From: a bacterium
Lineage (GTDB): Bacteria; Hinthialibacterota; Hinthialibacteria; Hinthialibacterales; Hinthialibacteraceae
Direction of reading: 5' to 3'
DNA: 64,000 nucleotides
NCBI GenBank assembly: GCA_963662285.2
Contig: CAXXMV010000002.1
Span: 1,504,001-1,568,000 of the forward strand
The notes beneath the pieces are model-generated. The model made no database searches. It was not told the origin of the DNA and saw nothing but the letters and a program-made list of their open reading frames with translations. Positions 1,565-45,049 of this stretch are shown here, piece after piece. The position numbers and the translations under genes were made by a program. Within the stretch, counting starts at the first letter, position 1, and each line of letters starts with the position of its first letter.

Positions 1565-2183
1565 GTGCGCCTTGAAAGTTCATGGCGTCAAGTCGTCTGA
1601 AATGGCGACCACGGTAAAGCCTAACCAGCAGCCGTGTATCGAGTCTTGCGCTGTGTCTGGCAACAGCCATGGTGAAGCGTAGACAGAAAGGAAGCAGGCC
1701 GTAACGCAAGTGAAGAGATTTTAGTTCCGAAATACACGTCTTTGAAGTCGCAGACCTGTGTTGCCCTACGGGGAATGCGGAATTGGCGCTGTCGGTATGG
1801 TGAGGCGGTGACCAAGGCTTCCGGGATTTCAACTCACGGCATGTTTTCAAATGATGTCATGGGAACAAGGGAGGTCCGGTTGGTTCCGGCGGAGCCGGTA
1901 GGTTCAAACAAGCCCTAGCAAGGTGAAGATGATCTGATGACCGGTCGTAAGTCAGACCAGCTGATAATACTCTGAGTAAGGGAGAGCCTGTCACATGGGG
2001 AAGCGGCTGGCAGGAAAAGAGTCTTTTCAGGGACGCATAAGCTCCATGCAAAGGGAGGCTGCGGGCGATTCATCAAAAGGGATATCATCCTCCGGCGGTT
2101 CGGAGAGTGTATATACCTAAACCGGGAAAGAAGGAAAAACGTCCTCTAAGAGTGCCGTGCGTAGTGGACCGCGCCTTGCAGCG
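1565..2183 (+). mobile_element. Group II intron remnant: 5' ribozyme domains plus a short reverse transcriptase fragment, 3' half lost
   Basis: Starts with GTGCG at 1565 and has domain I-like motifs (ggtgaagcgtagacag, ccgaaat). 2068-2183 translates to IHQKGYHPPAVRRVYIPKPGKKEKRPLRVPCVVDRALQR, the RT1-RT2 signature of group II intron RTs. Confidence 0.85.
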
Positions 2184-7982: not shown

Positions 7983-9320
7983 ATGAAACGTTTTGGTTCA
8001 TACCTCGTATTGTTTTTACTCAGTGTAACTTTGTTCGTCGTGAATTCTGAATCTTCAGACTGGCCGCAATATCTTGGTCCGGACAGAAACTCAACGTCGC
8101 CGGAAAAAGGTATTTTACATTCCTGGCCTGAAAATGGTCTGGAGGTTCTATGGACGGTTCCAGTTAATAGAGGTTATGGCGGACCTGTTATCAAAGACGG
8201 CAAGGTTTATTTGCTCGACAGGGATGATAAAGTCGGTGATAACATTCGGTGTTTTGATTTCTCGAATGGCAAGGAACTCTGGAACTTTGCTTATGATGCT
8301 CCTGGAGAAGTCATGTTTCCTGGTTCGAGAAGCGTACCGATTGTAGACGGCAATTATGTGTATTCTTGCGGACATAACGGCGACTTATATTGCATCGATA
8401 TAAGCACACTCAAACCCGTCTGGAATAAGAACGTTTGGACGGATTTCGGTGGAACTAAGCTCCCGATATGGGCTATAACACAGTGTCCGTTGGTTTATGG
8501 TGATTTGCTGATTTTGGCTTCGCAAGCTCCGGACGCGGGCGTCGTGGCTTATGACAAACTCACTGGAGCTATTAAATGGAAGACGCCCAATCTTGGCAAT
8601 GAATCATATGCCAGTCCTTCAGTTGTGAAAATAGACGGAAAAGACCATGTTGTAATGGTTATTTCATCTACTAATCCCTTTGGAAATAGAGGAATGCCGC
8701 AAACTCTCGGTAATATTGTTGGACTAGAACCCCTTACTGGAAAAATCCTTTGGGAATACAAGCAGTGGGAATGTCATATTTCCGTACCGAGTGCAGTGGA
8801 TGCCGGTAACAATAAAGTGCTTGTTGTTGGTGGATATGAACACGGTGCGGTTATGGTCGAAGTCAAAAAACAAGCAGATGGCAGCTACATTGCCACAGAA
8901 CTTTTCAAGCATAACGATTTTGGCGATCAAACCAAACCGCCGATATTACATAATGGTTATTTCTACGCTCAGTTCTCAACCAATAGTAAACGTGACGGCC
9001 TTGTATGCATGAATATGGATGGTGAGATTATGTGGAAAACAGGACGTTCACCCAATTTTAATAAAGGCAGTATGATTCTGGTTGACGGCCTGATTCTAGC
9101 TACTGATGGCGCAAAAACTTTATACCTAATAGAACCTGATCCGAAAGAGTTTAAACCACTGGCAACAGCTGAATTACTCGGTGAAGCTGGATTAAATGCT
9201 GAAGGCATTGCAGCCCGCTTTGGAGGTTCAACTCAGAACTGGGCTCCAATCGCTCTTTCCAACGGCAAACTCCTTATCCGGGATCACAGCCAGTTAAAGT
9301 GCGTCAAAGTCGCTAAATGA
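7983..9320 (+). CDS. Secreted PQQ-binding-like (BamB-like) beta-propeller protein
   Basis: Signal peptide, DWPQYLGPDRN start, repeated G..LW motifs, WAPIALSNGKLLIRD end. Confidence 0.88.
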   Translation: MKRFGSYLVLFLLSVTLFVVNSESSDWPQYLGPDRNSTSPEKGILHSWPENGLEVLWTVPVNRGYGGPVIKDGKVYLLDRDDKVGDNIRCFDFSNGKELWNFAYDAPGEVMFPGSRSVPIVDGNYVYSCGHNGDLYCIDISTLKPVWNKNVWTDFGGTKLPIWAITQCPLVYGDLLILASQAPDAGVVAYDKLTGAIKWKTPNLGNESYASPSVVKIDGKDHVVMVISSTNPFGNRGMPQTLGNIVGLEPLTGKILWEYKQWECHISVPSAVDAGNNKVLVVGGYEHGAVMVEVKKQADGSYIATELFKHNDFGDQTKPPILHNGYFYAQFSTNSKRDGLVCMNMDGEIMWKTGRSPNFNKGSMILVDGLILATDGAKTLYLIEPDPKEFKPLATAELLGEAGLNAEGIAARFGGSTQNWAPIALSNGKLLIRDHSQLKCVKVAK

Positions 9321-9400: not shown

Positions 9401-10723
9401 ATGACGAGTATAGAGATTAAATATCATTCCCTTACCAAATATTTCGTTTTAAAAGTTCTTGTCACGCTCGCTTTTTTTATGACTGATTTAGTATTTTTGC
9501 CTGAAGCTCAAGCCGATGAAAACGTACCTTCCAAGCAAAAAGAAATCGAAAAGAACTGGCCCCGCTTTCGTGGTCCCAATGGACTGGGAATATCGTTCTA
9601 CACGAATATCCCCACTTCGTGGAATGGAAAGACAGGCGAAGGTGTTCTTTGGAAAAAAGAGATTCCTCTTCCCGGTGAAAATTCTCCGGTGCTATGGGGC
9701 GATCGTGTTTTTGTAACTGGAGCTGATAGAGAAAAAAGAGAAGTCTATTGTTTCAACGCCAATTCGGGAGACCTGTTTTGGCGAAAATCAGTAGACAATA
9801 TTTCAAGTGATTCGGATTACCGAAAATTGCGTGAGTCTTCAGTATTGACCGCTTCGACATCGGCAACCGATGGCAAGCGAATATTCTCCATCTTTGCCAA
9901 CGGAGATATTTTTTGTCTTGATTTTGATGGGAATAGCATATGGTCAAAATGTCTTGGCCCAATCAAAAACGATTTTGGCCATGCGAGTTCGTTGCTAGTT
10001 TACCAAGACCTTCTAATTGTTCAACTTTATCAGGGTTTTGATGATGATGGGCTTTCAAAAATAGTGGCGCTTAGAACCAATAATGGAGCTGTTGCTTGGA
10101 GCGCAAAGATAAATCTTCCATACTCATGGGCGACTCCAATCGTTATTAACACAGGCAAGCGGGAGGAAATTATCACTTGCGGCAATCCCTGGGTAATTGC
10201 CTATGCCCCATTGACCGGAAAAGAACTTTGGAGAGCAGAATGTTTGGGTGGAGAAGTAACGCTTTCTCCTGTTTATTCAGATGGTCTTGTATTTGTCGCC
10301 AATGCCATGGCCTTGTGCGCCGCAATCCGCCCTGGGGGACAGGGTGATGTTACCGATACAAATGTTGTATGGGCTTTCGGTGACGTTGTAGCAGATATTT
10401 GCAGTCCATTAGCTACGGAGGATTTTTTATACCTTCTGGAATCGGGAGGATATCTTATTTGCTATGACGCTAAAACAGGAAAAACAATCTGGGAACACGA
10501 TTTGAAAAATGGATTTACCGCTTCTCCCAGCCAAGTTGGAGATCGTATTTATTTATTGGCCGAGGATGGTGTAATGACAATAATTAACAATGGCCGTGAG
10601 TTCAAAGAGATTGCGAAATGCGAGTTAGGTGAAAAAACGCAGGCGACTCCCGCTTTTTCAGATGGAGCGATCTATATCCGGGGCGAGAACAATCTTTACT
10701 GCATTGGACAAGAGCAGATGTAA
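9401..10723 (+). CDS. Secreted PQQ-binding-like beta-propeller protein
   Basis: NWPRFRGPNG, SSPV-type and G..LW repeats, ATPAFSDGAIYIRG end. Confidence 0.88.
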   Translation: MTSIEIKYHSLTKYFVLKVLVTLAFFMTDLVFLPEAQADENVPSKQKEIEKNWPRFRGPNGLGISFYTNIPTSWNGKTGEGVLWKKEIPLPGENSPVLWGDRVFVTGADREKREVYCFNANSGDLFWRKSVDNISSDSDYRKLRESSVLTASTSATDGKRIFSIFANGDIFCLDFDGNSIWSKCLGPIKNDFGHASSLLVYQDLLIVQLYQGFDDDGLSKIVALRTNNGAVAWSAKINLPYSWATPIVINTGKREEIITCGNPWVIAYAPLTGKELWRAECLGGEVTLSPVYSDGLVFVANAMALCAAIRPGGQGDVTDTNVVWAFGDVVADICSPLATEDFLYLLESGGYLICYDAKTGKTIWEHDLKNGFTASPSQVGDRIYLLAEDGVMTIINNGREFKEIAKCELGEKTQATPAFSDGAIYIRGENNLYCIGQEQM

Positions 10724-13475: not shown

Positions 13476-14363
13476 ATGACTTTAATGAATGAATCTATCA
13501 AAATGAATCGATCAACTCTTGTTTTCTGTCAATGTAAGAATAGCGATTCAATCCCGGAAGACGTCAAACAAACCGTTTGCAATGCGCTAAACAAGTCGTC
13601 CATTGAATTCAATTCGGTGGATGATCTTTGCGGTTTAGCGGCGAATCAAGATGAATGGTTCGGCAAATTAAAAAACGATCAAAAACATACTATCGTTGCT
13701 TGCACCGAACGCGCAGTCAAATGGTTATTTCATCTGGCAGGATCAGAGATGCCCGAAAAAACAACGGTGCTCAATATGCGCGAGATGAATGCCGATGCGA
13801 TTCTGCAATCATTAAACATAGAAAAACCATGCAGTTCATGCTTACAGGATCAGGCTGAAATCAAACCTGAAATGGATGTTACCTGGATTCCCTGGTTCCC
13901 GGTCATTGATTATGATCGCTGTACACACTGCAAACAGTGCCTGAATTTCTGTCTGTTCCGTGTTTTTGAACTGGATGAAAAAGAGAATGTCATTGTTAGG
14001 AATCCCTCAAATTGCAAAACCAGCTGCCCCGCTTGCGCAAGAGTCTGTCCAGAAAGAGCTATCATATTCCCGAAACATGAATCATCACAAATAAATGGAA
14101 GCGATATTCAACCAAATGAAGTAAAACAAGAAACGAATCTGAATATTCTTCTCCAAGGTGATCTGCAAGATATCTTGCGAAAACGAACTGCCGGGGCCAA
14201 AGGAAATTATCCAACGATGCAAGACATCGCTTTGGCTCAGGAAGAACGGAAAAAATGCGGCTGCGAGCCATCATCTCCCGTTCAGATCGGCCTAATGGGT
14301 AATATGAATCCTGTAAAAAAAGCACCGTCAAGCAATAAAGGAGATATAAACAGCAGTGGTTAA
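13476..14363 (+). CDS. 4Fe-4S dicluster ferredoxin-domain protein
   Basis: [11 protein letters not shown] and [13 protein letters not shown] motifs plus extra N-terminal cysteines. Confidence 0.85.
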
Positions 14364-15876
14364 TTCATCTTTGAAACCTTCAGTCATTCTTGTTGCGGAC
14401 CGGACGCTTTCCAGTAATTATAAAATTCTGTTCGAGGGTATTTTCGCCACCATGCAAACTACGAAAGTCCCTGAACTGGCTATGAAATTGCTTGTATCGC
14501 CAAAAATGCCTACGGACAGCCAAGGCCGCGCAATGGCCGTCCCTTTAGGTTTGCGCCGTTTAGAAGCGGCTCTAATCGAACAAGGCGTGTTACATGAAGA
14601 CGAAGTGGTTTGCACAACTCCAGAAGCGCTAGAATCTCTCCTGGGACCATGGGTGAAAATAGTCGGGATCAGTTCCAGCGACCCACTCGGGCAAGGTATG
14701 AGCAACACTACTACCGACAAATTTTGGAGCGGAGAACTCTACACTAAAGTCTGGACTGCCAAGATGATGGGCGAACTGAAAAAGGCCAAGGAGAAATTCA
14801 ATTTTAAAGTTATTGGCGGCGGAGCTGGAGCATGGCAATGGCAGAACGCTCCGCAAGAATGTCAAAACCAGGGAATAGACCATCTCTTTATTGGCTACGG
14901 TGAATCAAAAGGCGTTAATTTAATCCGCGATCTACTCAATGATAAAGACGCTTCATTCACGACAATAGAAAAAGACAACACTGTCGGCGACATACCTAAA
15001 ATCCGTCATGCTTCACTCCTTGGAATCATCGAACTCTCGCGGGGCTGCGGAAAAGGATGCCGTTTCTGCACGCTCGCCAAACAACCGATGGTGCATTTAC
15101 CTGCCGATACCATCCTCTCCGACATCGAAACCAATGTCTCTCAGGGAGTAACTTCAGTTGTTAGTGGAAGCGAAGATTTTTTCCGCTACGGCGCAACCGG
15201 TTCCAAAATCAATTTTGATGCACTCCATCAGTTATTTACTGAAATGAAGAAAATCAAGGGACTCTCATTCATGCAGATCGACCACGCCAACATTTCGTCG
15301 GTCTTACAAATGAGCGATGACCAACTCAAAGAAATCCGGTCTCTTCTCCAATGGGAGAAAATGAGTGATTACCTGTGGGTGAACATGGGCGTCGAAAGCG
15401 CCAATGGAAATCTGGTCGCGGCCAACGGAGCAGCTAAAATGCATCCCTTCGATCCTTCAAACTGGGAAGACATGGTCAAAGACGCCGTCGCCCGTTTAAG
15501 CAGAACAGGCTACTTTCCCGTTCTCAGCATCATTCTAGGTCTCCCTGGTGAAACAGAAGACGATGTTGAAAGAACGATCCAACTCGTGAAAGAAATCTCG
15601 CGTCAATCTGCGGTAGTATTCCCGGTGTTCTATGAGCCGGTGCTTCCGGGAGAACAACGCTTTACACTGGAAAGCATGACCGCCAAACACCTGAAACTCT
15701 ATGCCATGTGCTATGAAATCAACTTTAAGCATGTTCCTGAAATGTACTGGGACAATCAACGGGCAGGAGGCGTGCCATGGCTCAAACGTGCGCTAGTCCG
15801 ACTTTTGGGTAAAACAGAAATTAACGCGTGGCGCAAGAAGTTTAGACAATTGGAAACGACTCTTGCTGTCCAATAA
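14356..15876 (+). CDS. Radical SAM protein, probably with an N-terminal cobalamin-binding-like domain
   Basis: [13 protein letters not shown] (CxxxCxxC), [18 protein letters not shown] and GLPGETEDD motifs. Confidence 0.85.
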
Positions 15877-15929
15877 AATAATATGGTGATATAGTCATCT
15901 ATGAATAAGAAAAATTCCGGGATTTATCA

Positions 15930-17618
15930 ATGCAAGAATTAAACGAGACAAAATTGGAACTGCCGCTGGCTACCCAATCGCTACCCATTCAGGACAACAT
16001 CTGTCAAACCAAATCCGAGCGGGATGAACTCCGTTCGGTTATCCACGCCTATGTTCAGCAAGAAAACCTGATTGCCCCTCTATCCATAGATGAACTATCA
16101 TACCATGCAAATGCAATCTTGAAGATCGCTGGATGTGATGCAAAATACCAAGACTATACAGCCATCCTGGTTCACAATGAACTCTGGTCTCAACGCGTCA
16201 GTCAAATCCCTTATGATAGGAGACTATTGCTTCTTCCGCGTTGCTTTAAGCACCAAGAACTCTGCCAGGCTCAAGAAGACAGCCTGGGCCTTATCTGCGC
16301 TCATTGTGGGAACTGCGCCATTGATGATCTACAAACCGAAGCCGAACAGTTAGGTTATATGGTCATGGTCGCTGAAGGATCACCAGTTGTTATGGCCTTG
16401 ATCGAATCAGGAAAAATTGAAACTGTCATCGGTGTTTGTTGCATCTCCGTCTTAGAAAAAGTCTTCCCCTACTTGGAAGCTGGCGCCATACCTGGAATCG
16501 CAATTCCCTTACTCCGCGATGGGTGCTTTGATACGTATACCGACATGGATTGGGTCTGGGAAGCCATTTACCTCAACTCAGATAATCCCGTTCCAAGAAT
16601 GGATATAAACTCACTCAAACAAGAAGTGCAAAACTGTTTCGATCTCAAAACGCTAGAATCCTACATGGGATCCCCACAGAGCGAAACCGAAAAGATCGCC
16701 CTTCAGTGGCTGGCAAAATCTGGCAAACGCTGGCGTCCTTATCTAGCGGCATGCGTCTATCAATCATTACGCGACGACTCTTCAGCGCCGTTGCCCGGAT
16801 CGATATGTAAATTATTAATCGCAATCGAATGCTTCCATAAAGCATCGCTCATCCATGACGATATTGAAGATAATGATAACCTGCGATATGGAGAAGAGAC
16901 GCTGCATGTCCAATACGGCGTTCCCGTTGCGCTCAATGTCGGCGATATTCTGGTCGGCGACGGATACCGCCTGATTGCAGAATTAGATATCTCTAATGAC
17001 CAGAAAGTAGACATGCTGTATATCGCGGCTCTTGGACACCGGACCTTATGCCAAGGCCAAGGCGCAGAACTCTGTTGGCAACAACATCGCTCACCACTCT
17101 CCATCAATGATATTCTCGATATCTACAAACAAAAAACCGCCCCGGCTTTTGAAGTTGCGCTCAGGCTTGGAGCCATGTTTGCCGGTATGGATGATAAGAT
17201 CGGCAATATCCTCCAGCAATACAGCACGGCTTTGGGCATTGCCTATCAAATAAGAGACGACTTTTCCGATAGCGGTTTGGAAGAAGGGCAGAGCCTAAAT
17301 AACCATAACTCAATGGATATCTCTCTGCTCATGGCTGTCGCTTATAAGAAAGCCAATGAAGGCGACAAAAAAATACTCAAAGCGTTTTGGCAACAGTCAA
17401 CATCAGACGCGCAAAGCGCAGACCAAATCTACAACCTAATGAAACAACTGAAAGTTATTAATGACATTCAGGCGTTATTCCAACAATACAAGAATGATGC
17501 GTATTCAGTACTCTCACCTATTGATAATCCAAATTTAAAATGCGTTCTTCACCGGGTTATTGGCAAAATCTTCAGTGATATAACAAATATGGGTTGTTGC
17601 AATGACTATAAGACTTGA
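15930..17618 (+). CDS. DUF116-polyprenyl diphosphate synthase fusion
   Basis: Cys-rich DUF116-like N-terminus (LLLLPRCF..C...C..C..C, GVCC) followed by GKRWRP, FARM HDDIED and SARM QIRDDFSD. Confidence 0.85.
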   Translation: MQELNETKLELPLATQSLPIQDNICQTKSERDELRSVIHAYVQQENLIAPLSIDELSYHANAILKIAGCDAKYQDYTAILVHNELWSQRVSQIPYDRRLLLLPRCFKHQELCQAQEDSLGLICAHCGNCAIDDLQTEAEQLGYMVMVAEGSPVVMALIESGKIETVIGVCCISVLEKVFPYLEAGAIPGIAIPLLRDGCFDTYTDMDWVWEAIYLNSDNPVPRMDINSLKQEVQNCFDLKTLESYMGSPQSETEKIALQWLAKSGKRWRPYLAACVYQSLRDDSSAPLPGSICKLLIAIECFHKASLIHDDIEDNDNLRYGEETLHVQYGVPVALNVGDILVGDGYRLIAELDISNDQKVDMLYIAALGHRTLCQGQGAELCWQQHRSPLSINDILDIYKQKTAPAFEVALRLGAMFAGMDDKIGNILQQYSTALGIAYQIRDDFSDSGLEEGQSLNNHNSMDISLLMAVAYKKANEGDKKILKAFWQQSTSDAQSADQIYNLMKQLKVINDIQALFQQYKNDAYSVLSPIDNPNLKCVLHRVIGKIFSDITNMGCCNDYKT

Positions 17619-18483
17619 GATGATCCAAACCGCCAAATTCGGTGCGGCTAGTTTAAACCCGACCATAGCCAATCAAATCATTAATTTCGTGAGCAGCTTA
17701 CACAATCCTGATGGCGGATACCGCGGACGCAGCACGGCGAGCGATTTATACTATACCGTCTTCGCCATGAAAATCCTGTTATCATTTAATGCAGAGTTGC
17801 CCGTAGATAAAATTGAAGCCTATTTAAACTCTATCAGCGCCGGTCAACCTCTCGATCTTGTTCACTTATCTTGCCTGGCCCGCTGCTGGGCGAATTTACC
17901 TGATAAAAAGCCTTCATTTGAAAAGCGCGCTTCAATCATAGAACAGATCAAAAGCTGCTGGATCGGCCCAACAGGATTCGCCAATCGGCCAGGAGAAAAA
18001 AAAAGTTCAATTTACAGCACATTCATGGCATTGAGCGCGTATCAGGATTTAGAAGAGGCCATGCCCGATCAGGAGGCCATTATTGATTGGCTCTTTTCCA
18101 ACGAAGCAGCTGAAGAAGGTTTTGCGTTTAAGACGGATGCCAACGGTTTAACGCCAATCACATCAGGCGCCGTTATCCTGCTCAAGCATTTAAGCGTTGC
18201 GGTTCCAGATGAAACCAGGCAATGGCTGCTCAACAGACATAATCCGGATGGTGGATTCTACGCCGCATCTCTGCTGCCTCTCCCCGATCTATTATCCACA
18301 GCTACCGCTCTGCATGCATTAAAAGCGTTAAACGTTTCCCTCGATGAAATCCGTGAGCCTTGCTTAAACTTTGTTAATAGCCTTTGGCGTAAACACGGTT
18401 TCTGCGGGATGACCGTTGATGAAACAGTTGATTGCGAATACACCTTCTATGGATTGCTTGCGCTTGGTAACTTATTAGAATAA
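17602..18483 (+). CDS. Prenyltransferase/squalene oxidase repeat protein (single alpha/alpha barrel)
   Basis: HNPDGGY and HNPDGGF repeats, DLYYT and DCEYTFY motifs. Confidence 0.8.
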   Translation: MTIRLEMIQTAKFGAASLNPTIANQIINFVSSLHNPDGGYRGRSTASDLYYTVFAMKILLSFNAELPVDKIEAYLNSISAGQPLDLVHLSCLARCWANLPDKKPSFEKRASIIEQIKSCWIGPTGFANRPGEKKSSIYSTFMALSAYQDLEEAMPDQEAIIDWLFSNEAAEEGFAFKTDANGLTPITSGAVILLKHLSVAVPDETRQWLLNRHNPDGGFYAASLLPLPDLLSTATALHALKALNVSLDEIREPCLNFVNSLWRKHGFCGMTVDETVDCEYTFYGLLALGNLLE

Positions 18484-18496
18484 ACAGAGGATTGAC

Positions 18497-20359
18497 ATGA
18501 GTTTCAACATCAATGATCTAACAACAACATTAAACAATACCCGGCAACGCTTACTCCATGAACGCAACCAACAAGGCCATTGGGAAGGCGAACTTTCCAG
18601 CAGCGCCCTCTCAACCGCAACGGCGGTTGTGGCCCTGGCGTTAACCGACTCTAAAAAACACCGGCGCCGCATCCAAAAGGGCTTGGATTGGCTAGTTCAT
18701 AACCAAAACCAGGATGGCGGCTGGGGGGATAGCGCATGCAGTCCAAGCAATATCAGTACAACCACGTTGGCATGGGCCGCTTATGCTGTAGCGGAAAATG
18801 AATCTATCTACCAAAAGACCATAGATGGAGCAGGTCAGTGGATAATTAAGAAGTCAGGCAGTTTAGATATTGAAGCACTCGCGGATACCATCACCGCTTG
18901 CTATGGAGAAGACCGGACTTTCTCTGTACCGATCTTGACGCATTGCGTCTTAAGCGGGAGATTCGGCTCAGACTGTAAAACATGGTCATTAATTAAACCG
19001 CTGCCTTTTGAGTTCGCCCTGGTTCCGTTCTGGTGCTTAAAATGGCTGCGAATCACGGTTGTCAGTTATGCGCTTCCCGCGCTAATCGCTATCGGTCAGG
19101 TAAGGCATCATCACGCTCCTCCCAAGAATCTCCTGGTGCGAATCGTGCGCAATCTAGCTCGCTCCAGAACATTAAAACTCCTAAACCGCATACAGCCCGG
19201 CAGCGGTGGATTTCTGGAAGCAACGCCGCTAACAAGTTTTGTAACCATGTCGCTGGCATCATCCAATGAAAAAGATAATCCCGTCGTCAAAAAAGCCATT
19301 GAGTTTTTAACGCAATCACAAAGAGAAGATGGCAGCTGGCCCATTGATACTAACCTGGCCACATGGGTAACAACTTTAAGCATAAATGCACTTGCGATTA
19401 ACAAAGATTTTCACAATATCCTTCAAGAAAAAGACCGGACGGCCATCACAACCTGGCTATTGATGCAACAAAACCGTGACATTCATCCCTATACCCGCGC
19501 AGGCGCAGGAGGATGGGCCTGGACTGATTTAGCGGGAGGCGTCCCCGACGCTGACGACACGGCAGGAACTCTTATCGCATTACAAAACCTGGGAATTTAT
19601 AATGAAAAAGTGAGAGAATCTATCCAACCAGGCATTCTATGGTTTTTGCAATTGCAAAACAGCGATGGCGGCATCCCGACTTTCTGCCGCGGCTGGGGAA
19701 AACTTCCCTTCGATCAAAGCGCCCCGGATCTAAGCGCTCATTTCATTTCAGCATTAATGATTTGGTCGCAGACAAACAAGTTGCCAGAGCGCCTCAATCT
19801 AAAAATCAAAAAGGCCATCAAGAAAAACCTGCATTACTTAAAAACCGCGCAAAAAGAAAATGGTTCCTGGATACCTCTGTGGTTCGGCAACAACCACGCC
19901 CCAAAAGAAGAGAATCCCGTCTATGGAACAGCGTTGGTAATATCATCTCTTGCAAGCCTGGAAATAATCCCGGACAATGACCTTACCGGGATGATATCAA
20001 GAGGCCATAAATACATCCTGCAAACTCAAAACACGGATCAAGGTTGGGGAGGCGCAAATGATATCCCCTCAAGCATTGAAGAAACCGCCCTGGCGGTCAG
20101 TGCTCTATCTCTAACACTGACCTGGTGTTATAAACATGAAATTGCGCCAGAATGCTTTGATCAGCAAAATATTAAAAATTCAATTCAACAAGGCATAGTT
20201 TGGCTCATCAACAAAACCAACCAAGGCGCAGAGTTCCCCCCATCGCCAATAGGTCTTTACTTCGCCAAACTATGGTATTACGAAAAACTTTACCCCATCA
20301 TCTTCACAACCAGAGCTCTTGAAAGAGCAAACACAATCCTATATCTACTGGATGAATAA
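18497..20359 (+). CDS. Squalene-hopene cyclase-like class II terpene cyclase
   Basis: QW repeats (QNQDGGW, QREDGSW, QKENGSW, QNTDQGW), catalytic DADDTA, GLYFAKLWY end. Confidence 0.88.
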   Translation: MSFNINDLTTTLNNTRQRLLHERNQQGHWEGELSSSALSTATAVVALALTDSKKHRRRIQKGLDWLVHNQNQDGGWGDSACSPSNISTTTLAWAAYAVAENESIYQKTIDGAGQWIIKKSGSLDIEALADTITACYGEDRTFSVPILTHCVLSGRFGSDCKTWSLIKPLPFEFALVPFWCLKWLRITVVSYALPALIAIGQVRHHHAPPKNLLVRIVRNLARSRTLKLLNRIQPGSGGFLEATPLTSFVTMSLASSNEKDNPVVKKAIEFLTQSQREDGSWPIDTNLATWVTTLSINALAINKDFHNILQEKDRTAITTWLLMQQNRDIHPYTRAGAGGWAWTDLAGGVPDADDTAGTLIALQNLGIYNEKVRESIQPGILWFLQLQNSDGGIPTFCRGWGKLPFDQSAPDLSAHFISALMIWSQTNKLPERLNLKIKKAIKKNLHYLKTAQKENGSWIPLWFGNNHAPKEENPVYGTALVISSLASLEIIPDNDLTGMISRGHKYILQTQNTDQGWGGANDIPSSIEETALAVSALSLTLTWCYKHEIAPECFDQQNIKNSIQQGIVWLINKTNQGAEFPPSPIGLYFAKLWYYEKLYPIIFTTRALERANTILYLLDE

Positions 20360-20431
20360 GTTTGACCTGAAATAATGTTGCAGTTATTTGTGAAGCACAC
20401 AGAACATATCCGTTTTAGAAGCAAGACCATC

Positions 20432-20731
20432 ATGACTAAGAAGGTATTTTATCTTTCGCTCATTTTATTCGCCTCAATACAGGCGTCCGCTGATATTACT
20501 ATAGTGGCCAATCCAGGCCAATTTGAAAGCATAGAAAAAGCAGCCAATGCAGAAAAACAGGTTGATTTCTGGGATGCGGATTTAACCGATGACCGCGCCT
20601 GCACAGAGTGTTTTGCGGCGTTGGAATTGAAGACCTTCCTGCTCAAATCCCTCTGTGCCAGTTTTTTTCAGCAGAGATCTAGGTTGAATCCTATTTTCTT
20701 TATTTTCCATTTTGAAGAACCTCGGTTATAA
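20432..20731 (+). pseudogene. Truncated N-terminus of a secreted protein
   Basis: Signal peptide MTKKVFYLSLILFASIQASA and about 55 natural-looking residues, then an atypical tail running into AT-rich DNA. Confidence 0.45.
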
Positions 20732-24521: not shown

Positions 24522-24596
24522 GTTGCTATTTAGGGGTTATTTCTTCTTTGCTTTTCAGCGGAAATCAGTCAATTGCCCATAAAGGAGATTATTGGC

Positions 24597-27419
24597 ATGG
24601 CTTTGGTCGATTCAAACCGTATTACTAACGAGCAGAAACATGAAATTGAGAATAAAGATATGAGCGCTTCGACATCCACTGAAGGTAAAGGATTGCACTT
24701 TCGGCGTATCTATACTCAAGAGGGCGTTGATCCGTTTTCTACAGTTGAGTGGGAGTATCGCGATGCTTTGATAGCTGGCGAAAAAGGGGAAACGATTTTC
24801 GAACAAAAAAATGTTGAATTTCCCAAAGCATGGTCGCAATTGGCTGCTAATGTAGTTGTTTCTAAATATTTCCGTGGACAAAACGGTACGAACAATAGAG
24901 AAAATAGCGTCAGGCAACTCATATCCCGTGTAGCGGATACGATTGTCTCCTGGGGCGAGCGGCAGAAATATTTTGCATCTGAGCGGGATCGCGACGCCTT
25001 TCATGATGAATTAGTCTATCTGCTGTTGCATCAACATGCTTCTTTCAATAGCCCTGTGTGGTTCAATGTCGGCGTCGAAAAGGAACCGCAATGTTCCGCA
25101 TGTTTTATTAATTCTGTAGAAGATACTATGGAATCAATCCTGGAATTGGCTAAAACTGAGGGCATGTTGTTCAAATATGGTTCCGGCGCCGGGGCTAATT
25201 TATCTCCGATTCGCTCTTCCAAGGAACTGCTGCATGGTGGAGGAACCGCTTCTGGCCCAGTATCATTCATGAAGGGTTATGATGCTTTCGCCGGGGTTAT
25301 CAAGTCTGGCGGCAAGACGCGTCGCGCCGCCAAAATGGTGATCTTAAACGCAGATCACCCCGATATCATCGATTTCATCCAATCGAAATCCAAGGAAGAA
25401 AAGAAAGCCTGGTCGCTGATCGATATGGGCTATGATGGCTCCTTCAACGGCGAGGCTTACAACTCGGTATTCTTTCAGAACGCCAACCATAGCGTCCGGG
25501 TTACAGATGAATTCATGAAATCAGTCGAAAATGACGGTGATTGGCATACTCGCTATGTTGCGAGTAATGAATTATGCGATACTCATAAGGCGCGCGAAAT
25601 TATGAGCATGATCGCCGAAGGAACGCATCTCTGCGGCGACCCGGGGATGCAATTTGATTCTACCGTCAACCGTTGGCATACCTGTCCTAACTCTGACCGC
25701 ATCAATGCTTCCAACCCATGCTCAGAATATATGTTTCTGGATGATACCGCCTGTAATCTGGCTTCTCTTAACCTGATGAAATATCAGAATGAGGATAGTA
25801 CGTTTGATGCGGATAAATTCAGGTATTCGGTTGATATAATGATAACGGCGCAGGAAATCATTATCGATAACGCCAGTTATCCAACCGAGAAGATCGGCGA
25901 AAATAGCCACCTATACCGTACTCTAGGCTTGGGCTACGCCAATTTGGGCGCCTTGATCATGGCTAGCGGTTACGCCTACGACAGCGAATCAGGCCGTACT
26001 TACGCTTCTGTCATCACATCGCTGCTCTGCGGTGAATCCTACGCCCAGAGCGCCCGCATCGCCCGTGAGATGCAGCCTTTCTCTGAATTTGCGATTAATC
26101 GCGAGCCGATGCTCAAAGTGATCGATATGCACCGCAAAGCCACCTATGATATAAATGCTGATAATGAGCATTCATACCTGCGTGACGAGGCCATTAAAGC
26201 CTGGGATAGCGCTTACGAACTGGGCGAACAGCATGGCTACCGCAACGCCCAGGTTACGGTTCTGGCCCCTACCGGAACCATCGCATTTATGATGGATTGC
26301 GACACCACCGGCATTGAACCGGATATCGCATTGGTTAAATACAAAAATCTGGTTGGCGGCGGAGCTCTCAAAATCATCAACAACACCGTACCTCGTTCAC
26401 TTGACCGATTGGGCTACTCAAAAGATGACAAAGAAAAAATCTTAGCCTATATCGCAGAAAACGACACCATCGAAGGCGCGCCGCAACTTAAACAGGAACA
26501 TCTTTCGGTATTCGATTGCGCCTTCAAACCATCTAAAGGCGAGCGTTCAATTAAATACATGGGGCATATTCGTATGATGGGCGCCGTCCAGCCATTCATA
26601 TCCGGCGCCATATCCAAGACCGTCAATCTTCCCACTGAAGCAACCGCCAAAGAAATCGAGAAAGTTTATCTCGAATCATGGAAACTGGGCTTAAAAGCGG
26701 TGGCGGTTTACCGGGATGGCTGCAAGCGGACTCAACCGCTGAACACCAGCAGTAACGCCGCTATGAAAGAAGCCAGCGATGCTCGCGCCAATTCCGTAAC
26801 TGATGCGACGCCGAAGCCTTACCGCTGGCGGTTGCCGGATGAGCGCTATGCCATTACTCATAAATTCAGCGTGGGCGGTCATGAAGGATATATTACGGTC
26901 GGCCTTTATCCTGAAGGTCAGCCGGGTGAGATTTTCCTGACCATGGCCAAAGAGGGAACTGTGGTATCGGGTATGATGGACGCTTTTGCTACAGCGGTTT
27001 CGCTATCCCTGCAATATGGCGTGCCCCTGAAAGTTCTGGTCAATAAATTCGCCCATACCCGATTTGAACCATCCGGTTTTACCGGCAATCCGGAAATCCC
27101 TATCGCCAAATCTATTACGGACTATATTTTCCGCTGGCTGGCTTCCAAATTTCTCTCTGATGAAGACCGCAAAATTGTGGGCATAATCGACCGCGGCGTA
27201 AAGAATGGCATTGATCTGAGCCAGGATAATTTCCCCGTTCCTGATTTGAATAATAAACTTGATTCTAAATCTACTGCTGGAGTAGGTAATTCAACTAAAG
27301 CATTCGCTTTCGAAACCCAGACCGACGCGCCCCCCTGCCATGAATGCGGCTCAATGATGGTGCGCAATGGATCGTGCTACAAATGCCTGAACTGCGGAGC
27401 AACCAGCGGCTGCTCGTGA
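24597..27419 (+). CDS. nrdJ: Adenosylcobalamin-dependent class II ribonucleotide reductase with TSCPD-type domain and C-terminal Zn ribbon
   Basis: PQCSACFI, SNPCSEY, APTGTI, GAISKTVN, terminal CxxC..CxxC..GCS; AAGGAG RBS. Confidence 0.95.
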   Translation: MALVDSNRITNEQKHEIENKDMSASTSTEGKGLHFRRIYTQEGVDPFSTVEWEYRDALIAGEKGETIFEQKNVEFPKAWSQLAANVVVSKYFRGQNGTNNRENSVRQLISRVADTIVSWGERQKYFASERDRDAFHDELVYLLLHQHASFNSPVWFNVGVEKEPQCSACFINSVEDTMESILELAKTEGMLFKYGSGAGANLSPIRSSKELLHGGGTASGPVSFMKGYDAFAGVIKSGGKTRRAAKMVILNADHPDIIDFIQSKSKEEKKAWSLIDMGYDGSFNGEAYNSVFFQNANHSVRVTDEFMKSVENDGDWHTRYVASNELCDTHKAREIMSMIAEGTHLCGDPGMQFDSTVNRWHTCPNSDRINASNPCSEYMFLDDTACNLASLNLMKYQNEDSTFDADKFRYSVDIMITAQEIIIDNASYPTEKIGENSHLYRTLGLGYANLGALIMASGYAYDSESGRTYASVITSLLCGESYAQSARIAREMQPFSEFAINREPMLKVIDMHRKATYDINADNEHSYLRDEAIKAWDSAYELGEQHGYRNAQVTVLAPTGTIAFMMDCDTTGIEPDIALVKYKNLVGGGALKIINNTVPRSLDRLGYSKDDKEKILAYIAENDTIEGAPQLKQEHLSVFDCAFKPSKGERSIKYMGHIRMMGAVQPFISGAISKTVNLPTEATAKEIEKVYLESWKLGLKAVAVYRDGCKRTQPLNTSSNAAMKEASDARANSVTDATPKPYRWRLPDERYAITHKFSVGGHEGYITVGLYPEGQPGEIFLTMAKEGTVVSGMMDAFATAVSLSLQYGVPLKVLVNKFAHTRFEPSGFTGNPEIPIAKSITDYIFRWLASKFLSDEDRKIVGIIDRGVKNGIDLSQDNFPVPDLNNKLDSKSTAGVGNSTKAFAFETQTDAPPCHECGSMMVRNGSCYKCLNCGATSGCS

Positions 27420-35318: not shown

Positions 35319-35358
35319 GGGAAATAACGACTTTCGGCAAAGAGAGTCGTTATTTCCC
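35319..35358 (-). terminator. Hairpin immediately 3' of the 6S RNA
   Basis: GGGAAATAACGACT / AGTCGTTATTTCCC perfect 14-bp stem. Confidence 0.65.
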
Positions 35359-35360
35359 GA

Positions 35361-35538
35361 ACTCCGCATTTGCCGTGTGTCAAAGCGTTTTGTTAAGACC
35401 TGACTCAGCAGGTGGGATCCCTGGCCCAAACCTCAGCCTCCCTCGCATGGAGGTATGACATCAATTGGGGATTGAGAGCCCGAGTAATGCTCATTATAGC
35501 CTTAAAACAACTTTAACCATCACCAACAACGCAGAGCG
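35361..35538 (-). ncRNA. ssrS: 6S RNA
   Basis: About 180 nt; 5' CTCTGCGTTGTTGGTG pairs with 3' CACACGGCAAATGCGGAG; conserved-looking 3' part CCCACCTGCTGAGTCAGGTCTTAA...ACGGCA. Confidence 0.75.
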
Positions 35539-35930
35539 ATTAAACAAATGATAGGCAATTATTGCCTGAGATTGATATTGTATCTCATTCATTTTATATT
35601 TTCAATTATCATTTCGATTAAGGAATGATGTTTTAGAGTGATTGATGTAAAATATTCATTGCGGCGTTTCGACAAAGCCAGTAAAGATTGGCTTTATCGA
35701 AGACTAAAGGCAATCTTTAACTAATATCATTTTGACTACCTCTCTAATGGAAAACAAAAAAAGTGATTTAACTTTTGCTATTCAGGGAAAAACAATAATA
35801 ATATTATGATAAGAGTATGATTTTGTGAGCAAAGTAGACAAAAGAAGATGCACTTGACTACTATTACTTATAATCTCATGATGAAACTCAATAGAATGAA
35901 GCATGCTTTTTTGAAAGGAGTGGTTTTAAA

Positions 35931-36452
35931 ATGAAAACCAACCGAATCCTAGTTGTTTTAGCTTGTCTTTCCGTGGTGATTGTTGGAGCGTGGGCGATTG
36001 ACAATCAGAATAACGCCGCCAGCGTCTCTCCGGCTGATTTTAATCCGGGTAATCCTAATGATTATCCTGTTCTCACAGATATTGATATCGATTTCATGGG
36101 TTTGGGTGACGTCGGCGAGATTTATATGATCGAAGGCATTGAAAATATGACCTCGGTTGAATTTAAAACAAATAAATATACCGCAGGCCCAACCTCATAT
36201 TCCCGTCTGGTTATGCATGGCGTCTTTGATAAAATTATGCGTGATTGGCGTGATACCATCATCGCGGGAACTACGACTAGACATGACATCGAACTGAATC
36301 TAAACAATAAAACCGGTAAACGCGTCCTACGCATTACCTTCTACGATGCGTTTCCAGTCAGTTTTTCCATCCCCCCTTTATCGGTTGATAACAACACGCG
36401 CTATATGGAGCGGATAGAATTCGTTTATACCGATTTCGACATCACTAATTAA
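35931..36452 (+). CDS. T4 gp19-like phage tail tube protein with N-terminal signal peptide
   Basis: C-terminal pattern W...I..G...R.DI.L.L....G..V.R..F..AFP....P.L.......E.IE..Y resembles gp19/eCIS tube proteins; MKTNRILVVLACLSVVIVGAWA signal; AAAGGAG RBS. Confidence 0.72.
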   Translation: MKTNRILVVLACLSVVIVGAWAIDNQNNAASVSPADFNPGNPNDYPVLTDIDIDFMGLGDVGEIYMIEGIENMTSVEFKTNKYTAGPTSYSRLVMHGVFDKIMRDWRDTIIAGTTTRHDIELNLNNKTGKRVLRITFYDAFPVSFSIPPLSVDNNTRYMERIEFVYTDFDITN

Positions 36453-38064: not shown

Positions 38065-40037
38065 TTATTGCATCGCTTTCAATAAATCCTGGGCTTGTTT
38101 GTTATCGGGATCTAGTTCGATGGCTTTTTGTAGATGAGTCAGCGCTTTATCTTTCTGTTCCTGGCGCTGATAGACCATTCCCATAAATATATGCGTTTGG
38201 ACGTTGTCTGGGTCTTTATCAAGGACGAACTGAAAATCGGATAACGCTCCTTTTAAGTCTCCACCGAACGCTTCAGGAGTGAAGAACCGAACCGCTCCAC
38301 GTCCAATATGCCCGCCGATGTTTTCGGGATCAACTTCAAGCGCTTTTTCAAATACTTTGCCAATCTGCATTCCATATACCATTTTATCCATGGGTTCAGA
38401 CAGTTCCGTCAATTGTCCAAGGATGTCTCCCTTTTGGACATACAATTCAGCATTGTTGGGATTCTGGTTAATCGACTTATCCATCTCTTTCAGATCATCT
38501 TTTAACTGTTGGATAATCTTCTTGGTCTCTTCATCCAATGGTTTTTGCGGAGGGAAGGGCGACATCCCTGGAGGAGGACCGCCTTGTCCATCTTGCATAA
38601 ATGGTGGAGGGCCGCCGGGGTCACCGGGTCTTGGGCCGCCTGGCGGGGGGCCGCCCGGTTGGCCGAATATGAAACTGTCAATCTGGTCGCCTTCTTTTTC
38701 ACCGGCCAATTGCGCTTTGACCGATGCAATACGTTGTTCAACGAACGGCTTGAGGCCGATGATCTGCTGGCTGAAGATGAAAGCCTGTGGTTTGACCGGA
38801 CCTTCCATACTCTTCTGGAAATCCTCGAATGAAAATACCGGCTTGGAGTCGGCTTGCACAGAATCTTTGATATGCGAATATAAACGGTCTATATCGGCGT
38901 TCATGGCTGTTGGATTGAAGAAATCCCGAATGAATGAACTGAGGTAAAATTCAAAAATCACCCGGTATTTTTCGATATCCAGAATGCGCTGGATCATGAT
39001 TTTGTCGCCCATATAAGGCTTTTTGATATCAAAATTGAGTATCTTCTCCGGCGATACCACTTGCAGGTTGCCGAATGCTTCGTTGACATCCCAGGGGATA
39101 AATTCAAAACGGCTTGAAGCGGTGTTGTAATACAGATACCAGTTATGCCCCAATCCGGCGTAACTATCCAGATCGGTCAACAGGGTATTGACCGCCAGCG
39201 ACGCCAGAAAGCGGTCGACGTTCAGTTTCTGCTCGATTTTCGAGGTGAATTCCTTATCAGATGCATCATTCAGAAACTTGATGAACTTAATCAATTGTTT
39301 TGCGTCATCAATGCCGCCGGATTTTAATTCGTGGTCATGGGCGTATTCTTCCCAATCATCCCCCCGGTATTCCAGATCACGCATGATCTCGAACTTAAAC
39401 AGACCACCATCAGAGTTGCCGAAACGGTCTTCCAGGAAAGGACGGTTGACTTGTTCGACCACCACGAAGAAACCCAGATGCTATTGGGGCTTGCCTTCAA
39501 TGTTCAAATAGATATTGGCGAAATGGCGCGCGGCGCCGGTACCGCTGCTTTTTGGTATAAATCATAAGTCAACTTATCTCGCAGCATGGATGGATCGCGG
39601 AAGCAGTTGATGAAATTCAGTTTGGTGAATCCATGAAAAATCTGTTCATCATTGTATCGGTTAAAATCTATTTTCAACGGCTTCTTCCCGTCAGGGGGGA
39701 TCATCATGATTGAAGCGTTGCCCCGGTAGCGCACGCCGACGCCTTCGTAAACCGCGCCGCCGCAGGTTACCGTTGCCGGGACGTAGGGAAACTCTTGAGA
39801 GAACATACTGCGCGAGCTCATTTTGGTCATATCGCGCTGTTGGGGCTTGGGTTGCATGTTCTGGAAATTTTCCGCCGTCATCTCGATGGTGAAAGTGAGA
39901 ATTTCCTGATTTTCGAAGACATAATTGTAATCCGCCACTGTCGCAGCGCTGCTGTTCATTGGTATAGTTAGGCTTAAAACCAATGCCAGAGCGGTAAAAC
40001 AGATTGCTTGATGCTTGGTTGAGCAGTAATGTCGCAT
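38065..40037 (-). pseudogene. CotH kinase family protein with C-terminal TPRs, disrupted
   Basis: VGVRYRGNAS, K.PLKIDFN, DPSMLRDKL; 1-nt frameshift near 39525, in-frame TAG at 39481-39483, then VVEQV, HNWYLY, FIPWDVNEAFG. Confidence 0.85.
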
Positions 40038-43859: not shown

Positions 43860-45049
43860 ATGAAAGAGATCAGACCTGACAACGGGATTCCTGTATATTT
43901 GTATATCGATCAGATCGAAGATGGAGCGTTGGAGCAGGCGGAGATGTGTTCGCGGCTGCCTCATGCTTTTCATCATATCGCCATCATGCCCGATTCTCAT
44001 CAGGGTTACGCCATGCCGGTGGGCGGGGTGATGGCTATGCAGGGCGCGGTGATGCCCAATGCGGTGGGGGTTGATATCGGCTGCGGCATGGTCGCCGCCC
44101 GCACTGACGCCCCGGCGGTTCAGGTTCGTCCCCGGTTGGAAGCGTTGGCTGAGGAGATATTCTATCGCATCCCGGTGGGCTTCGATTGGCACAAACAGCC
44201 TCAAGAAGGCGAAGCGATAGACCGTATCAAGGCGAAAGGTAAAGCCAAGCGCCAATTGAAAGAGCGTATGCCGGTGGTTATGCAGAGAGCCGATGACGCG
44301 GCGCGTCAACTTGGCACCCTGGGCGGGGGGCAATCACTTTATCGAGTTGGCAGATTGATGAGGATGGCCTGTTGTGGGTGATGCTCCATTCCGGGTCGCG
44401 CAACATAGGTCTGCAAATCGCCAATCATTACCATAAAATCGCCAAACAGTATTGCTCCAGTCTGGGCATGGGGCTGCCCAAGGATTACGCTTTTCTACCT
44501 TTGATACTGCCCGAAGCGCAACAGTATCTGGCCGAAATGCAGTGGGCTATGGATTTTGCTATGGAGAACCGCCTCCATATGATGGATCGCGTTTTTGAAG
44601 CCATGAACGATATCCTGGGGCGGGCGGTTCGCAATACTCTTGAAGTGCGCACCCACCATAACTACGCCGCCTGGGAAAACCATTTCGGTGAAAAAGTCCT
44701 GGTGCATCGCAAAGGCGCGGTTCGTGCGGCGCCGGGTGAATTGGTCACCATCCCCGGATCGATGGGAACCTCCAGTTATATCGGGCGGGGCATGGGATGC
44801 GCTGATGCTTTCCTGTCATGCTCGCATGGCGCCGGACGCGCTTTAGGCCGTAAGCAGGCCAAAAAGCAGATATCACGGGATGATTTTGAAGAGCAGGTTA
44901 AGGATATTATCGTCATGAGCCCCAAGCGAAGCGCTATAATCGATGAAGCGCCCGGCGCTTATAAGGATATCGAAGACGTGATGCGCCAGCAGCAGGAATT
45001 GGTGACTATAGAATTTCGTTTAAAGCCATTGGCGGTGATTAAAGGGTAA
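43860..45049 (+). pseudogene. rtcB: RtcB RNA ligase with two +1 frameshifts
   Basis: MPDSHQG, GVDIGCG, GTLGGG/NHFIEL/QIDEDG, HSGSR, HHN, HRKGA, SCSHGAGR; extra G in 44325-44330 and at 44349-44350. Confidence 0.9.

Follow-up and report, generated by a model that had tools for sequence, protein, structure and literature searches.

The DNA analyzed here is a 64-kb stretch (the window) of contig CAXXMV010000002.1, which is at least 1.85 Mb long and comes from a bacterium of the lineage Hinthialibacterota. Between positions 13476 and 20359, the window is filled by five co-oriented and tightly packed open reading frames (ORFs) on the plus strand, which encode a class II terpene cyclase, a trans-prenyl diphosphate synthase fused to a DUF116 domain, a single-toroid protein of the prenyltransferase fold (PT), a radical S-adenosylmethionine (SAM) enzyme, and an iron-sulfur (Fe-S) protein. 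Their positions and lengths in amino acids (aa) are as follows:

13476-14363, plus strand, Fe-S protein, 295 aa
14356-15876, plus strand, long radical SAM enzyme, 506 aa, GTG start codon
15930-17618, plus strand, DUF116-prenyl synthase, 562 aa
17602-18483, plus strand, PT, single α/α-toroid protein, 293 aa
18497-20359, plus strand, class II terpene cyclase, 620 aa

The four junctions are, in order, an 8-nucleotide (nt) overlap, a 53-nt gap, a 17-nt overlap, and a 13-nt gap. The terminator scan found no terminator-like site on the plus strand within 13476-20359, and the Rfam search found no RNA element within or beside the operon. The promoter and terminator scan returned fewer sites than were found in shuffled sequences (13 versus 19.8 and 8 versus 11.3), and no promoter was assigned. 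The gene set reported in the initial annotation, with every domain named there, agrees with the ORF coordinates and the Pfam matches, as does its description of overlapping or short junctions, none of which exceeds 53 nt. The Pfam scan covered 43 ORFs of the window (the five operon ORFs, a 118-aa ORF, and other chosen ORFs of at least 150 aa; partly at E ≤ 1e-5), and no match to squalene/phytoene synthase, amino-oxidase, or HpnG-type families was found among them. Queries with HpnC, HpnD, HpnE, and HpnH of a Streptomyces hopanoid cluster gave no tblastn match in the window at E ≤ 1e-3. The earlier statement that hpnCDE, squalene synthase, hpnH, and hpnG are absent from the window therefore holds.

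Cyclase, prenyl synthase, and toroid protein

The cyclase contains two toroid domains, which are matched by the Pfam families SQHop_cyclase_N (E = 9.6e-17) and SQHop_cyclase_C (E = 2.6e-36). The DADDTA motif is located at aa 351 to 356 (nt 19547-19564), and Asp351, Asp353, and Asp354 are invariant in 19 sequences of the cyclase family. The best match among solved structures is the squalene-hopene cyclase (SHC) of Alicyclobacillus acidocaldarius, at only 70.9 bits, and the DADD residues (aa 351 to 354) are aligned with the DVDD residues of PDB accession number 1gsz. On the NCBIfam hopene-cyclase model TIGR01507, the window cyclase scores 105.9 bits versus a cut-off of 431.1 and three other members of the family score 92 to 105, whereas two annotated SHCs from plasmid records score 657 and 711 and two Bacillales homologues score 414 and 461. 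For TIGR01787, the general model of squalene/oxidosqualene cyclases, whose range includes SqhC-type enzymes, the corresponding values are 136.2 bits (cut-off, 322.7), 115 to 125, 533 and 550, and 387 and 416. The window cyclase scores 98.1 bits on the oxidosqualene cyclase (OSC) model (cut-off, 851) and 58.9 bits on the tetrahymanol synthase model (cut-off, 500). The Bacillales homologues are taken as SqhC type by taxon; their records carry no such annotation.

The maximum-likelihood tree contains 35 rows: the window, 27 of 80 related genome loci spanning the taxa, five annotated SHCs, and the two Bacillales homologues; the remaining 53 loci are not in the tree, nor are OSCs and epoxy-polyprenyl cyclases. 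The 28 family rows lie on one side of a single branch with a support of 100 in the Shimodaira-Hasegawa-like approximate likelihood ratio test (SH-aLRT), and the branch lengths toward the SHC/Bacillales side are 4.69 and 3.28, which sum to about 8 changes per column. The window cyclase groups with the five other included rows whose loci carry the long radical SAM gene (SH-aLRT = 92). Among the 77 alignment columns that are invariant in the seven SHC/Bacillales references, 37 keep their residue in at least 90% of 72 family members, and these include the three Asp residues of DxDD and several Trp, Phe, and Tyr residues. The other 40 columns differ, many of them in a family-specific manner, such as Phe to Trp at 342 and 593 and Gly to Tyr at 588; the acid machinery is thus retained, while much else has diverged. 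On this evidence, the cyclase is classed as neither a canonical SHC nor a SqhC-type enzyme. The non-canonical character proposed for it earlier is borne out by the model scores and the long branch, and the phylogenetic comparison with SHC and SqhC-type sequences that had been suggested as a check yields a separate clade.

Santana-Molina et al. (2020) described an "SHC-like" group that is divergent from SHC and OSC and whose context points away from squalene, and they judged from context that the SHC-like enzymes of planctomycetes, which have HpnCDE, probably use another precursor (PMC7306690). McShea et al. (2025) delineated a clade of "unknown function" with no determined product, the sister clade of which cyclizes head-to-tail polyprenyl substrates; the 14 enzymes that they tested by expression are from the SHC/OSC side, and none is from the unknown clade (PMC12414744). 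The published traits of the clade are a length of 550 to 700 aa, retention of the catalytic residues, and occurrence in the Planctomycetes-Verrucomicrobia-Chlamydiae, Acidobacteriota, and Fibrobacteres-Chlorobi-Bacteroidetes lineages, including Gemmataceae (PMC7306690, PMC12414744). The window cyclase has 620 aa, retains DxDD, and has relatives of 46 to 74% identity in Planctomycetota (among them Fimbriiglobus), Verrucomicrobiota, Acidobacteriota, Kiritimatiellota, and Lentisphaerota. No feature separating it from the published clade was found. By these sequence traits, the window cyclase is assigned to the published SHC-like/unknown-function clade; the operon is an ordinary member of a widespread family that has already been noticed in print, and it does not define a new clade. 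Full-text literature searches found no paper that assigns a product to the cyclase family or the module, in agreement with the initial annotation, which knew of no defined product.

The synthase consists of an N-terminal DUF116 domain (aa 61 to 213, nt 16110-16568, E = 5.1e-32) and a polyprenyl synthase domain (PF00348; aa 254 to 504, nt 16689-17441, E = 6.8e-44, 150 bits). The first Asp-rich motif is DDIED (aa 310 to 314, nt 16857-16871) and the second is DDFSD (aa 443 to 447, nt 17256-17270); Asp310, Asp311, Asp314, Asp443, Asp444, and Asp447 are invariant in 29 synthase sequences. The PF00348 match and the two DDxxD motifs identify the enzyme as a trans-polyprenyl diphosphate synthase. The segment ECFHKASLIHDDIED is near-invariant in 38 synthase sequences (ECFHKASLIHDDIEDxDxxRYG), and all 38 have Ala at position -5, Ser at -4, and Phe at -8 relative to the first motif. 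Mutagenesis of archaeal and Thermotoga enzymes indicates that an aromatic residue at -5 or -4 limits the product to C15 to C20, that small residues permit longer chains, and that position -8 forms the next floor; by these rules, the Ala/Ser pattern belongs to medium- and long-chain synthases. The pattern therefore suggests a product somewhat longer than C20. Overall similarity was discarded as a guide to chain length, as farnesyl diphosphate (FPP), geranylgeranyl diphosphate (GGPP), hexaprenyl, and solanesyl synthases are mixed at similar scores in both PDB and NCBIfam. The DUF116 part contains seven Cys residues that are invariant across 29 sequences, and an ESM Atlas search with it returned DUF116 clusters only. 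Earlier work predicted that DUF116 is a redox domain of the flavodoxin-like type that binds metal, and its fusion to polyprenyl synthase was mentioned in passing by Makarova et al. for Psta_0175 of Pirellula staleyi (PMC5898192).

PT matches the Prenyltrans α/α-toroid family of Pfam (E = 5.4e-17), and its AlphaFold2 model is a single toroid with a predicted local distance difference test (pLDDT) score of 94. The best PDB profile match is the β subunit of RabGGTase (E = 1e-12), and the top Foldseek matches are the β chains of GGTase-III, RabGGTase, and FTase (E = 1.4e-8), ahead of β-only cyclases such as MstE. PT has no DxDD motif, and no Cys or His residue is invariant among 29 sequences, although His88 is conserved in at least 90%. 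The zinc site of protein prenyltransferases is formed by Asp, Cys, and His, and PT is thus unlikely to act as a cyclase or as a thiol prenyltransferase that depends on zinc. No α-subunit-like gene was seen in the conserved module on the crude ORF maps of the loci. In three proteins (P0241, P0242, and P0243; 898 to 906 aa), a full PT domain (39 to 41% identity) is followed by a full cyclase (44 to 45% identity) in which DADD is kept, and a fourth fusion of 960 aa has a weaker PT part; such natural fusions are a physical link between PT and the cyclase. In 26 of the 37 loci where both ends could be placed, the synthase gene runs into the PT gene; in the window, the two overlap by 17 nt. A complex prediction for the DUF116-synthase and PT gave a score of 0.00 in runs without controls, and nothing was drawn from it.

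Radical SAM enzymes and recurrence of the module

The long radical SAM enzyme of the window matches Radical_SAM of Pfam (E = 2.2e-12), and its CxxxCxxC motif (Cys231, Cys235, and Cys238; aa 231 to 238, nt 15046-15069) is invariant. The AlphaFold2 model (pLDDT = 86.5) joins a Rossmann-like domain at the N terminus to a radical SAM barrel with a helical tail, and the enzyme would on this model belong to the class B radical SAM enzymes, which combine CxxxCxxC with an N-terminal Rossmann-like cofactor domain. The best PDB folds are MgmA (E = 4e-15), TsrM, CysS, OxsB, and TokK, together with the B12-free AprD4 and the methylthiotransferases MiaB and RimO. The score on TIGR04013 (B12-binding/radical SAM) is 88 bits versus a cut-off of 251. 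The protein search returned 786 relatives, which are approximately 60% identical across distant lineages, and some of them are named "B12-binding domain-containing radical SAM protein" by NCBI. Assignment as a MiaB/RimO-type methylthiotransferase was rejected: the three N-terminal Cys residues are absent, the only conserved Cys residues outside the motif are Cys452 (invariant) and Cys86 (at least 90%), and the score on TIGR00089 is 56 bits versus 251. HpnH and the hopanoid methylases are not among the 11 listed NCBIfam matches of the enzyme. The window also encodes NrdJ, a class II (B12-dependent) ribonucleotide reductase (24573-27419, plus strand; 1458 bits on NF005122), which shows that the organism uses cobalamin and is relevant if the long radical SAM enzyme is B12 dependent.

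The Fe-S protein carries a 4Fe-4S dicluster domain at aa 140 to 196 (Fer4_6, E = 8.5e-8; nt 13893-14063), with two [4Fe-4S] clusters, and a conserved C-terminal tail. It is a fusion protein: aa 15 to 122 (nt 13518-13841) match a separate Cys-containing protein of approximately 130 aa found elsewhere (40% identity), and aa 136 to 261 match the Fer4 core of a protein of approximately 300 aa (49% identity), the gene of which adjoins the ~130-aa gene in other genomes. An ESM Atlas search with the Fe-S protein returned ferredoxin clusters only.

A word-indexed protein search with the cyclase returned at least 8000 candidates, and the matches listed are 48 to 74% identical. An exhaustive search of representatives clustered at 50% identity yielded 3278 matches at E ≤ 1e-3, 1622 at E ≤ 1e-10, and 623 at E ≤ 1e-30, and in a species-level genome collection at least 577 of at least 587 matched stretches encode a cyclase relative. 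The hosts include Planctomycetota (Phycisphaerae, Sedimentisphaerales, Pirellulales, Planctomycetaceae, and Gemmataceae), Verrucomicrobiota, Acidobacteriota, Kiritimatiellota, Lentisphaerota, Hydrogenedentota, Sumerlaeota, and Methylomirabilota. The 80 related loci were compared by tblastn with the window proteins and by crude ORF maps. The order Fe-S protein, radical SAM enzyme, DUF116-synthase, PT, cyclase recurs in dozens of genomes from several phyla, and the loci span Planctomycetota, Verrucomicrobiota, Acidobacteriota, Kiritimatiellota, Lentisphaerota, and Hydrogenedentota. In the 50 loci with at least 6.5 kb upstream of the cyclase, the DUF116-synthase is near the cyclase in 34, PT in 31, and the Fe-S protein in 35, and 28 of the 34 synthase-positive loci carry a radical SAM gene, leaving six without. 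HpnC, HpnD, and HpnE homologues were found by tblastn in none of the 81 sequences (the window and the 80 loci, the latter over a range of about 10 kb). The synteny over 50 loci supports the earlier proposal of a conserved, dedicated module with its own prenyl synthase and radical SAM enzyme. The suggestion that similar clusters may exist in other anaerobes was right as to recurrence over phyla, but the cluster is not confined to anaerobes: variants occur in taxa such as Chthoniobacter flavus Ellin428, Gimesia, and Fimbriiglobus.

Two types of radical SAM gene occupy the same slot. The long type is present in 10 of the 50 loci and a short type of approximately 396 aa in 18, and no locus has both. 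The short enzyme is unrelated to the long one and is SPASM/NirJ-like by weak NCBIfam matches. The short-type module is accompanied by a CobW-type GTPase (14 of 50 loci) and a DndA/IscS-like cysteine desulfurase (12 of 50), neither of which occurs with the long type, and a GcvH-like protein is found in 21 of 50 loci, none of them long type, the lipoyl-Lys position being kept in all 15 sequences compared. Examples of the short-type accessory genes are as follows:

Locus L011, 2627-4224
Locus L020, 11806-13008
Locus L041, 4816-6116

This distribution suggests that the long B12-like enzyme and the SPASM-type enzyme with its GcvH-like, CobW-type, and desulfurase companions are two solutions to one step. 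In Gimesia-like loci, the genes are those of the GcvH-like protein, the Fe-S protein, the cyclase, and the synthase. In two loci, an MFS_3 transporter gene with overlapping ends is inserted between the synthase and PT genes (L008, 7672-9078; L023, 7666-9096), a hint that some lineages export or flip the product. A gene for a DCC1-like thiol-disulfide oxidoreductase (approximately 140 aa) lies directly upstream of the cyclase gene in six loci of Verrucomicrobiota (L015, L032, L050, L057, L062, and L076), and in most of these the remaining module genes are missing from the vicinity. Three apparent long fusions (L016, 945 aa; L005, 775 aa; L030, 561 aa) have no extra Pfam domains and are probably upstream over-extensions of the crude ORF calls. 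The clade and its odd genomic context are already in print (PMC7306690, PMC12414744); the module anatomy, the two mutually exclusive radical SAM types, and the PT-cyclase fusions are added here, with the context figure S10 of PMC7306690 lying outside the comparison.

Proposed pathway and alternative explanations

The evidence leans modestly toward the five genes forming one operon for a self-contained isoprenoid-lipid pathway that bypasses squalene. In this pathway, the DUF116-fused synthase would extend an allylic diphosphate by regular head-to-tail additions, giving a polyprenyl diphosphate of more than C20, perhaps C25 to C35. PT, which is built like the prenyl-diphosphate-binding β subunits, may hold the chain and present it to the cyclase, where, to judge from the conserved motifs, the DxDD acid would protonate the terminal double bond and the chain would fold into a polycyclic skeleton. 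The radical SAM enzyme would tailor the substrate or the product without O2 and may be reduced via the ferredoxin-like protein, possibly also via the Cys-rich DUF116 domain; the best guess at its reaction in the window, where the enzyme is B12-radical-SAM-like, is C-methylation. The module, which is widely conserved in bacteria, probably makes a cyclic isoprenoid lipid, and we infer a non-hopanoid, possibly methylated polyprenoid. The earlier suggestion of an oxygen-independent route is consistent with the operon, in which no enzyme family needs O2. Its proposal of a dedicated pathway to a non-hopanoid or methylated product is largely supported as to the pathway, whereas "methylated" derives solely from the B12-radical-SAM-like fold of one of two alternative enzymes; on the whole, the observations of the initial annotation are confirmed and its interpretation is partly supported.

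Several points weigh against this pathway. No product or activity is known for any member of the family, and the lack of hpnCDE in a 64-kb section of a contig that is at least 1.85 Mb long says little about the whole genome, where the squalene synthesis genes could be located. The synthase domain is equidistant by similarity from short- and long-chain enzymes, and its best PDB and NCBIfam matches are GGPP and FPP synthases, none of which is near the cut-off. The canonical Streptomyces hopanoid cluster (hpnC-hpnD-hpnE-polyprenyl synthase-shc-(IspH-like)-hpnH-ispG-dxs) also has a prenyl synthase directly upstream of shc, where it feeds squalene synthesis, so adjacency of synthase and cyclase alone is no proof of a non-squalene substrate. 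In 16 of the 50 loci, the cyclase has no synthase or other partner gene within 9 kb, and Gimesia-type loci lack both PT and a radical SAM gene and have a degenerate second synthase motif, NDLKD. The long radical SAM enzyme has no Pfam B12-binding match at E ≤ 0.001, and the tailoring chemistry is not fixed because two unrelated radical SAM enzymes fill the same slot.

Among the alternatives, the pathway of a meroterpenoid or another secreted metabolite, in which PT would prenylate a non-isoprenoid acceptor that the radical SAM enzyme may have produced or altered, and the cyclase would close the tail (cf. the β-only MstE), is unlikely, though it draws on several features of the module. PT is nearest to prenyl-transferring β subunits, and its Asp277, Glu279, and Tyr280 residues are invariant and are located where, presumably, the D-x-C-Y metal/diphosphate motif of protein prenyltransferases lies. 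The inserted MFS_3 gene is of the exporter type, and meroterpenoid pathways employ some enzymes of the epoxy-polyprenyl sister clade (PMC12414744). However, that transporter gene is present in just 2 of 80 loci, the module has no conserved gene for an aromatic or other acceptor, PT lacks an invariant Cys or His for a zinc site, and the very wide, largely vertical-looking distribution with high conservation (623 representatives at E ≤ 1e-30) fits a core lipid better. A cyclase acting on squalene or a squalene-like triterpene, with hpnCDE or sqs encoded elsewhere, FPP supplied by the synthase, and a radical SAM enzyme decorating the product in the manner of HpnH, HpnP, or HpnR, is distinctly unlikely. 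It would account for the fold and the DxDD acid that are common to SHC and for the synthase-cyclase-radical SAM logic of the Streptomyces cluster, tblastn aligns HpnH weakly with the short radical SAM enzyme in 17 loci (53 bits at best), and the window is only 64 kb. Against it are the low score on the hopene-cyclase model (106 bits versus 657 to 711 for SHCs and 414 to 461 for the Bacillales homologues), the very long separating branch, the 40 of 77 changed SHC-invariant columns, the lack of HpnC, HpnD, and HpnE within about 10 kb in all 80 loci, the Ala/Ser pair in place of an aromatic residue in the synthase, and the probable use of another precursor by the SHC-like enzymes of HpnCDE-bearing planctomycetes (PMC7306690).

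A coupling reaction independent of squalene synthase, in which the Fe-S protein, the radical SAM enzyme, and the DUF116-synthase would join two prenyl units by reductive or radical chemistry into a symmetric hydrocarbon that the cyclase then folds, is very improbable. The redox load on the prenyl synthase is heavy (seven invariant DUF116 Cys residues and a protein with two [4Fe-4S] clusters), the other cluster type adds the cysteine desulfurase, the CobW-type GTPase, and the GcvH-like protein with its conserved lipoyl-Lys position, the two-domain cyclase is of SHC size, and there are lineages with SHC in which no squalene synthase is known (PMC7306690). The coupling has neither precedent nor direct evidence, however, the synthase has all the motifs of head-to-tail elongation, and the redox proteins are more simply explained as a reducing system for the radical SAM enzyme. 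Adjacency of the genes by chance, without joint function, hardly merits belief: the cyclases that stand alone in 16 of 50 loci would fit it, but it is contradicted by the synteny and fusion data, namely, the order and strand kept across phyla, the overlapping stop and start codons of the synthase and PT genes in 26 of 37 loci, and the PT-cyclase fusions.

With its redox-domain-fused synthase, prenyltransferase-like third toroid, and alternative radical SAM enzymes, the module departs from every characterized class II cyclase pathway. It shares with the hopanoid pathway (HpnCDE, SHC/HpnF, and HpnH/HpnP/HpnR) a two-toroid DxDD cyclase and a clustered prenyl synthase and radical SAM enzyme, whereas it lacks nearby HpnC, HpnD, and HpnE and adds the DUF116, PT, and Fe-S proteins. 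In the Bacillus sporulenol pathway (heptaprenyl synthase, YtpB, and SqhC), an SHC relative acts on a product derived from a regular polyprenyl chain and not on squalene (PMC7306690). The Bacillales enzymes score 387 to 416 on the general model and 414 to 461 on the SHC model, whereas the family described here scores 115 to 136 and 92 to 106, the two lie on opposite sides of the long branch, and the module showed no class I enzyme of the YtpB type. The epoxy-polyprenyl cyclases (Lon15, AtoE, Bra4, and PlaT2), which use head-to-tail chains, are the reported sister clade and need an O2-derived epoxide, whereas the present family keeps the DxDD acid used for plain alkenes (PMC12414744); no monooxygenase is present in the module. 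The protein prenyltransferase β subunits (RabGGTase and FTase) share the single α/α toroid and the repeat motifs with PT and are its best sequence and fold matches, whereas PT lacks the invariant zinc Cys and His residues and an α-subunit gene and is fused to the cyclase in some organisms.

The large size of the family (623 representatives and at least 577 species genomes) in common soil and sediment bacteria means that the product of the proposed pathway could be an abundant, overlooked membrane lipid. The DUF116 fusion, the third, prenyltransferase-like toroid, and the swap of radical SAM families would each, if confirmed, be new terpenoid enzymology. Compounds of the tricyclohexaprenol type have been proposed as the precursors of tricyclic terpanes, a hypothesis credited to Ourisson. 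The module could conceivably be a long-sought biological route to such polycyclic regular polyprenoids, although we give this extension a low probability: the three-toroid PT-cyclase would fold a head-to-tail chain of C30 or longer from the DUF116-synthase, the radical SAM enzyme would methylate or cross-link the product, and the whole pathway would run without O2. If so, the sources would be the abundant Planctomycetota, Verrucomicrobiota, and Acidobacteriota of sediments and soils, and the product could be a candidate source of the tricyclic terpanes that are known as "orphan biomarkers" of sediments and oils (PMC9247107). The unknown-function clade has been named the main uncharacterized branch of the class II cyclase tree, and its substrate would help to constrain the proposed scenarios of cyclase evolution (PMC12414744).

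Other features of the window

The 118-aa ORF (20375-20731, plus strand) begins 15 nt past the cyclase gene, and part of it resembles a signal peptide. Neither Pfam nor NCBIfam matches this ORF, and tblastn finds no counterpart of it among the 80 loci. Possibly a remnant or specific to this lineage, it was left out of the module count. Upstream of the operon, two genes at 7983-9320 and 9401-10723 (plus strand) encode secreted pyrroloquinoline quinone (PQQ)-like β-propeller proteins, each with a signal peptide and a DWPQ(W/F)RGP motif, and a pilin-like gene and a LytTR two-component system separate them from the operon. The LytTR system is not conserved among the loci, with only a partial match in L001 and a distant one in L052. 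In eight long-type loci (L004, L006, L022, L023, L035, L037, L060, and L069), PQQ-like β-propeller genes immediately precede the Fe-S gene, and their products could be a sixth, envelope-side component or merely members of an abundant planctomycete gene family. A second single-toroid protein, similar to prenyltransferases and SQHop_cyclase_N (354 aa, 22% identity to PT), is encoded at 61264-62328 (minus strand).

Two ORFs that overlap in different frames (43860-44381 and 44372-45049, plus strand) share the RtcB RNA ligase between them, covering model positions 1 to 153 and 181 to 426; a frameshift, a sequencing error, or recoding accounts for the split. Two adjacent ORFs, 38065-39465 and 39504-40037 (minus strand), each encode part of a CotH kinase-like protein, and the second has tetratricopeptide repeats. 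Rfam identified group II intron domains D1 to D4 at 1600-1836 (plus strand; RF02005, 119.6 bits) and a 6S RNA at 35357-35540 (minus strand; RF00013, 66.3 bits), just downstream of which a gene for a T4 gp19-like tail-tube protein is located at 35931-36452.

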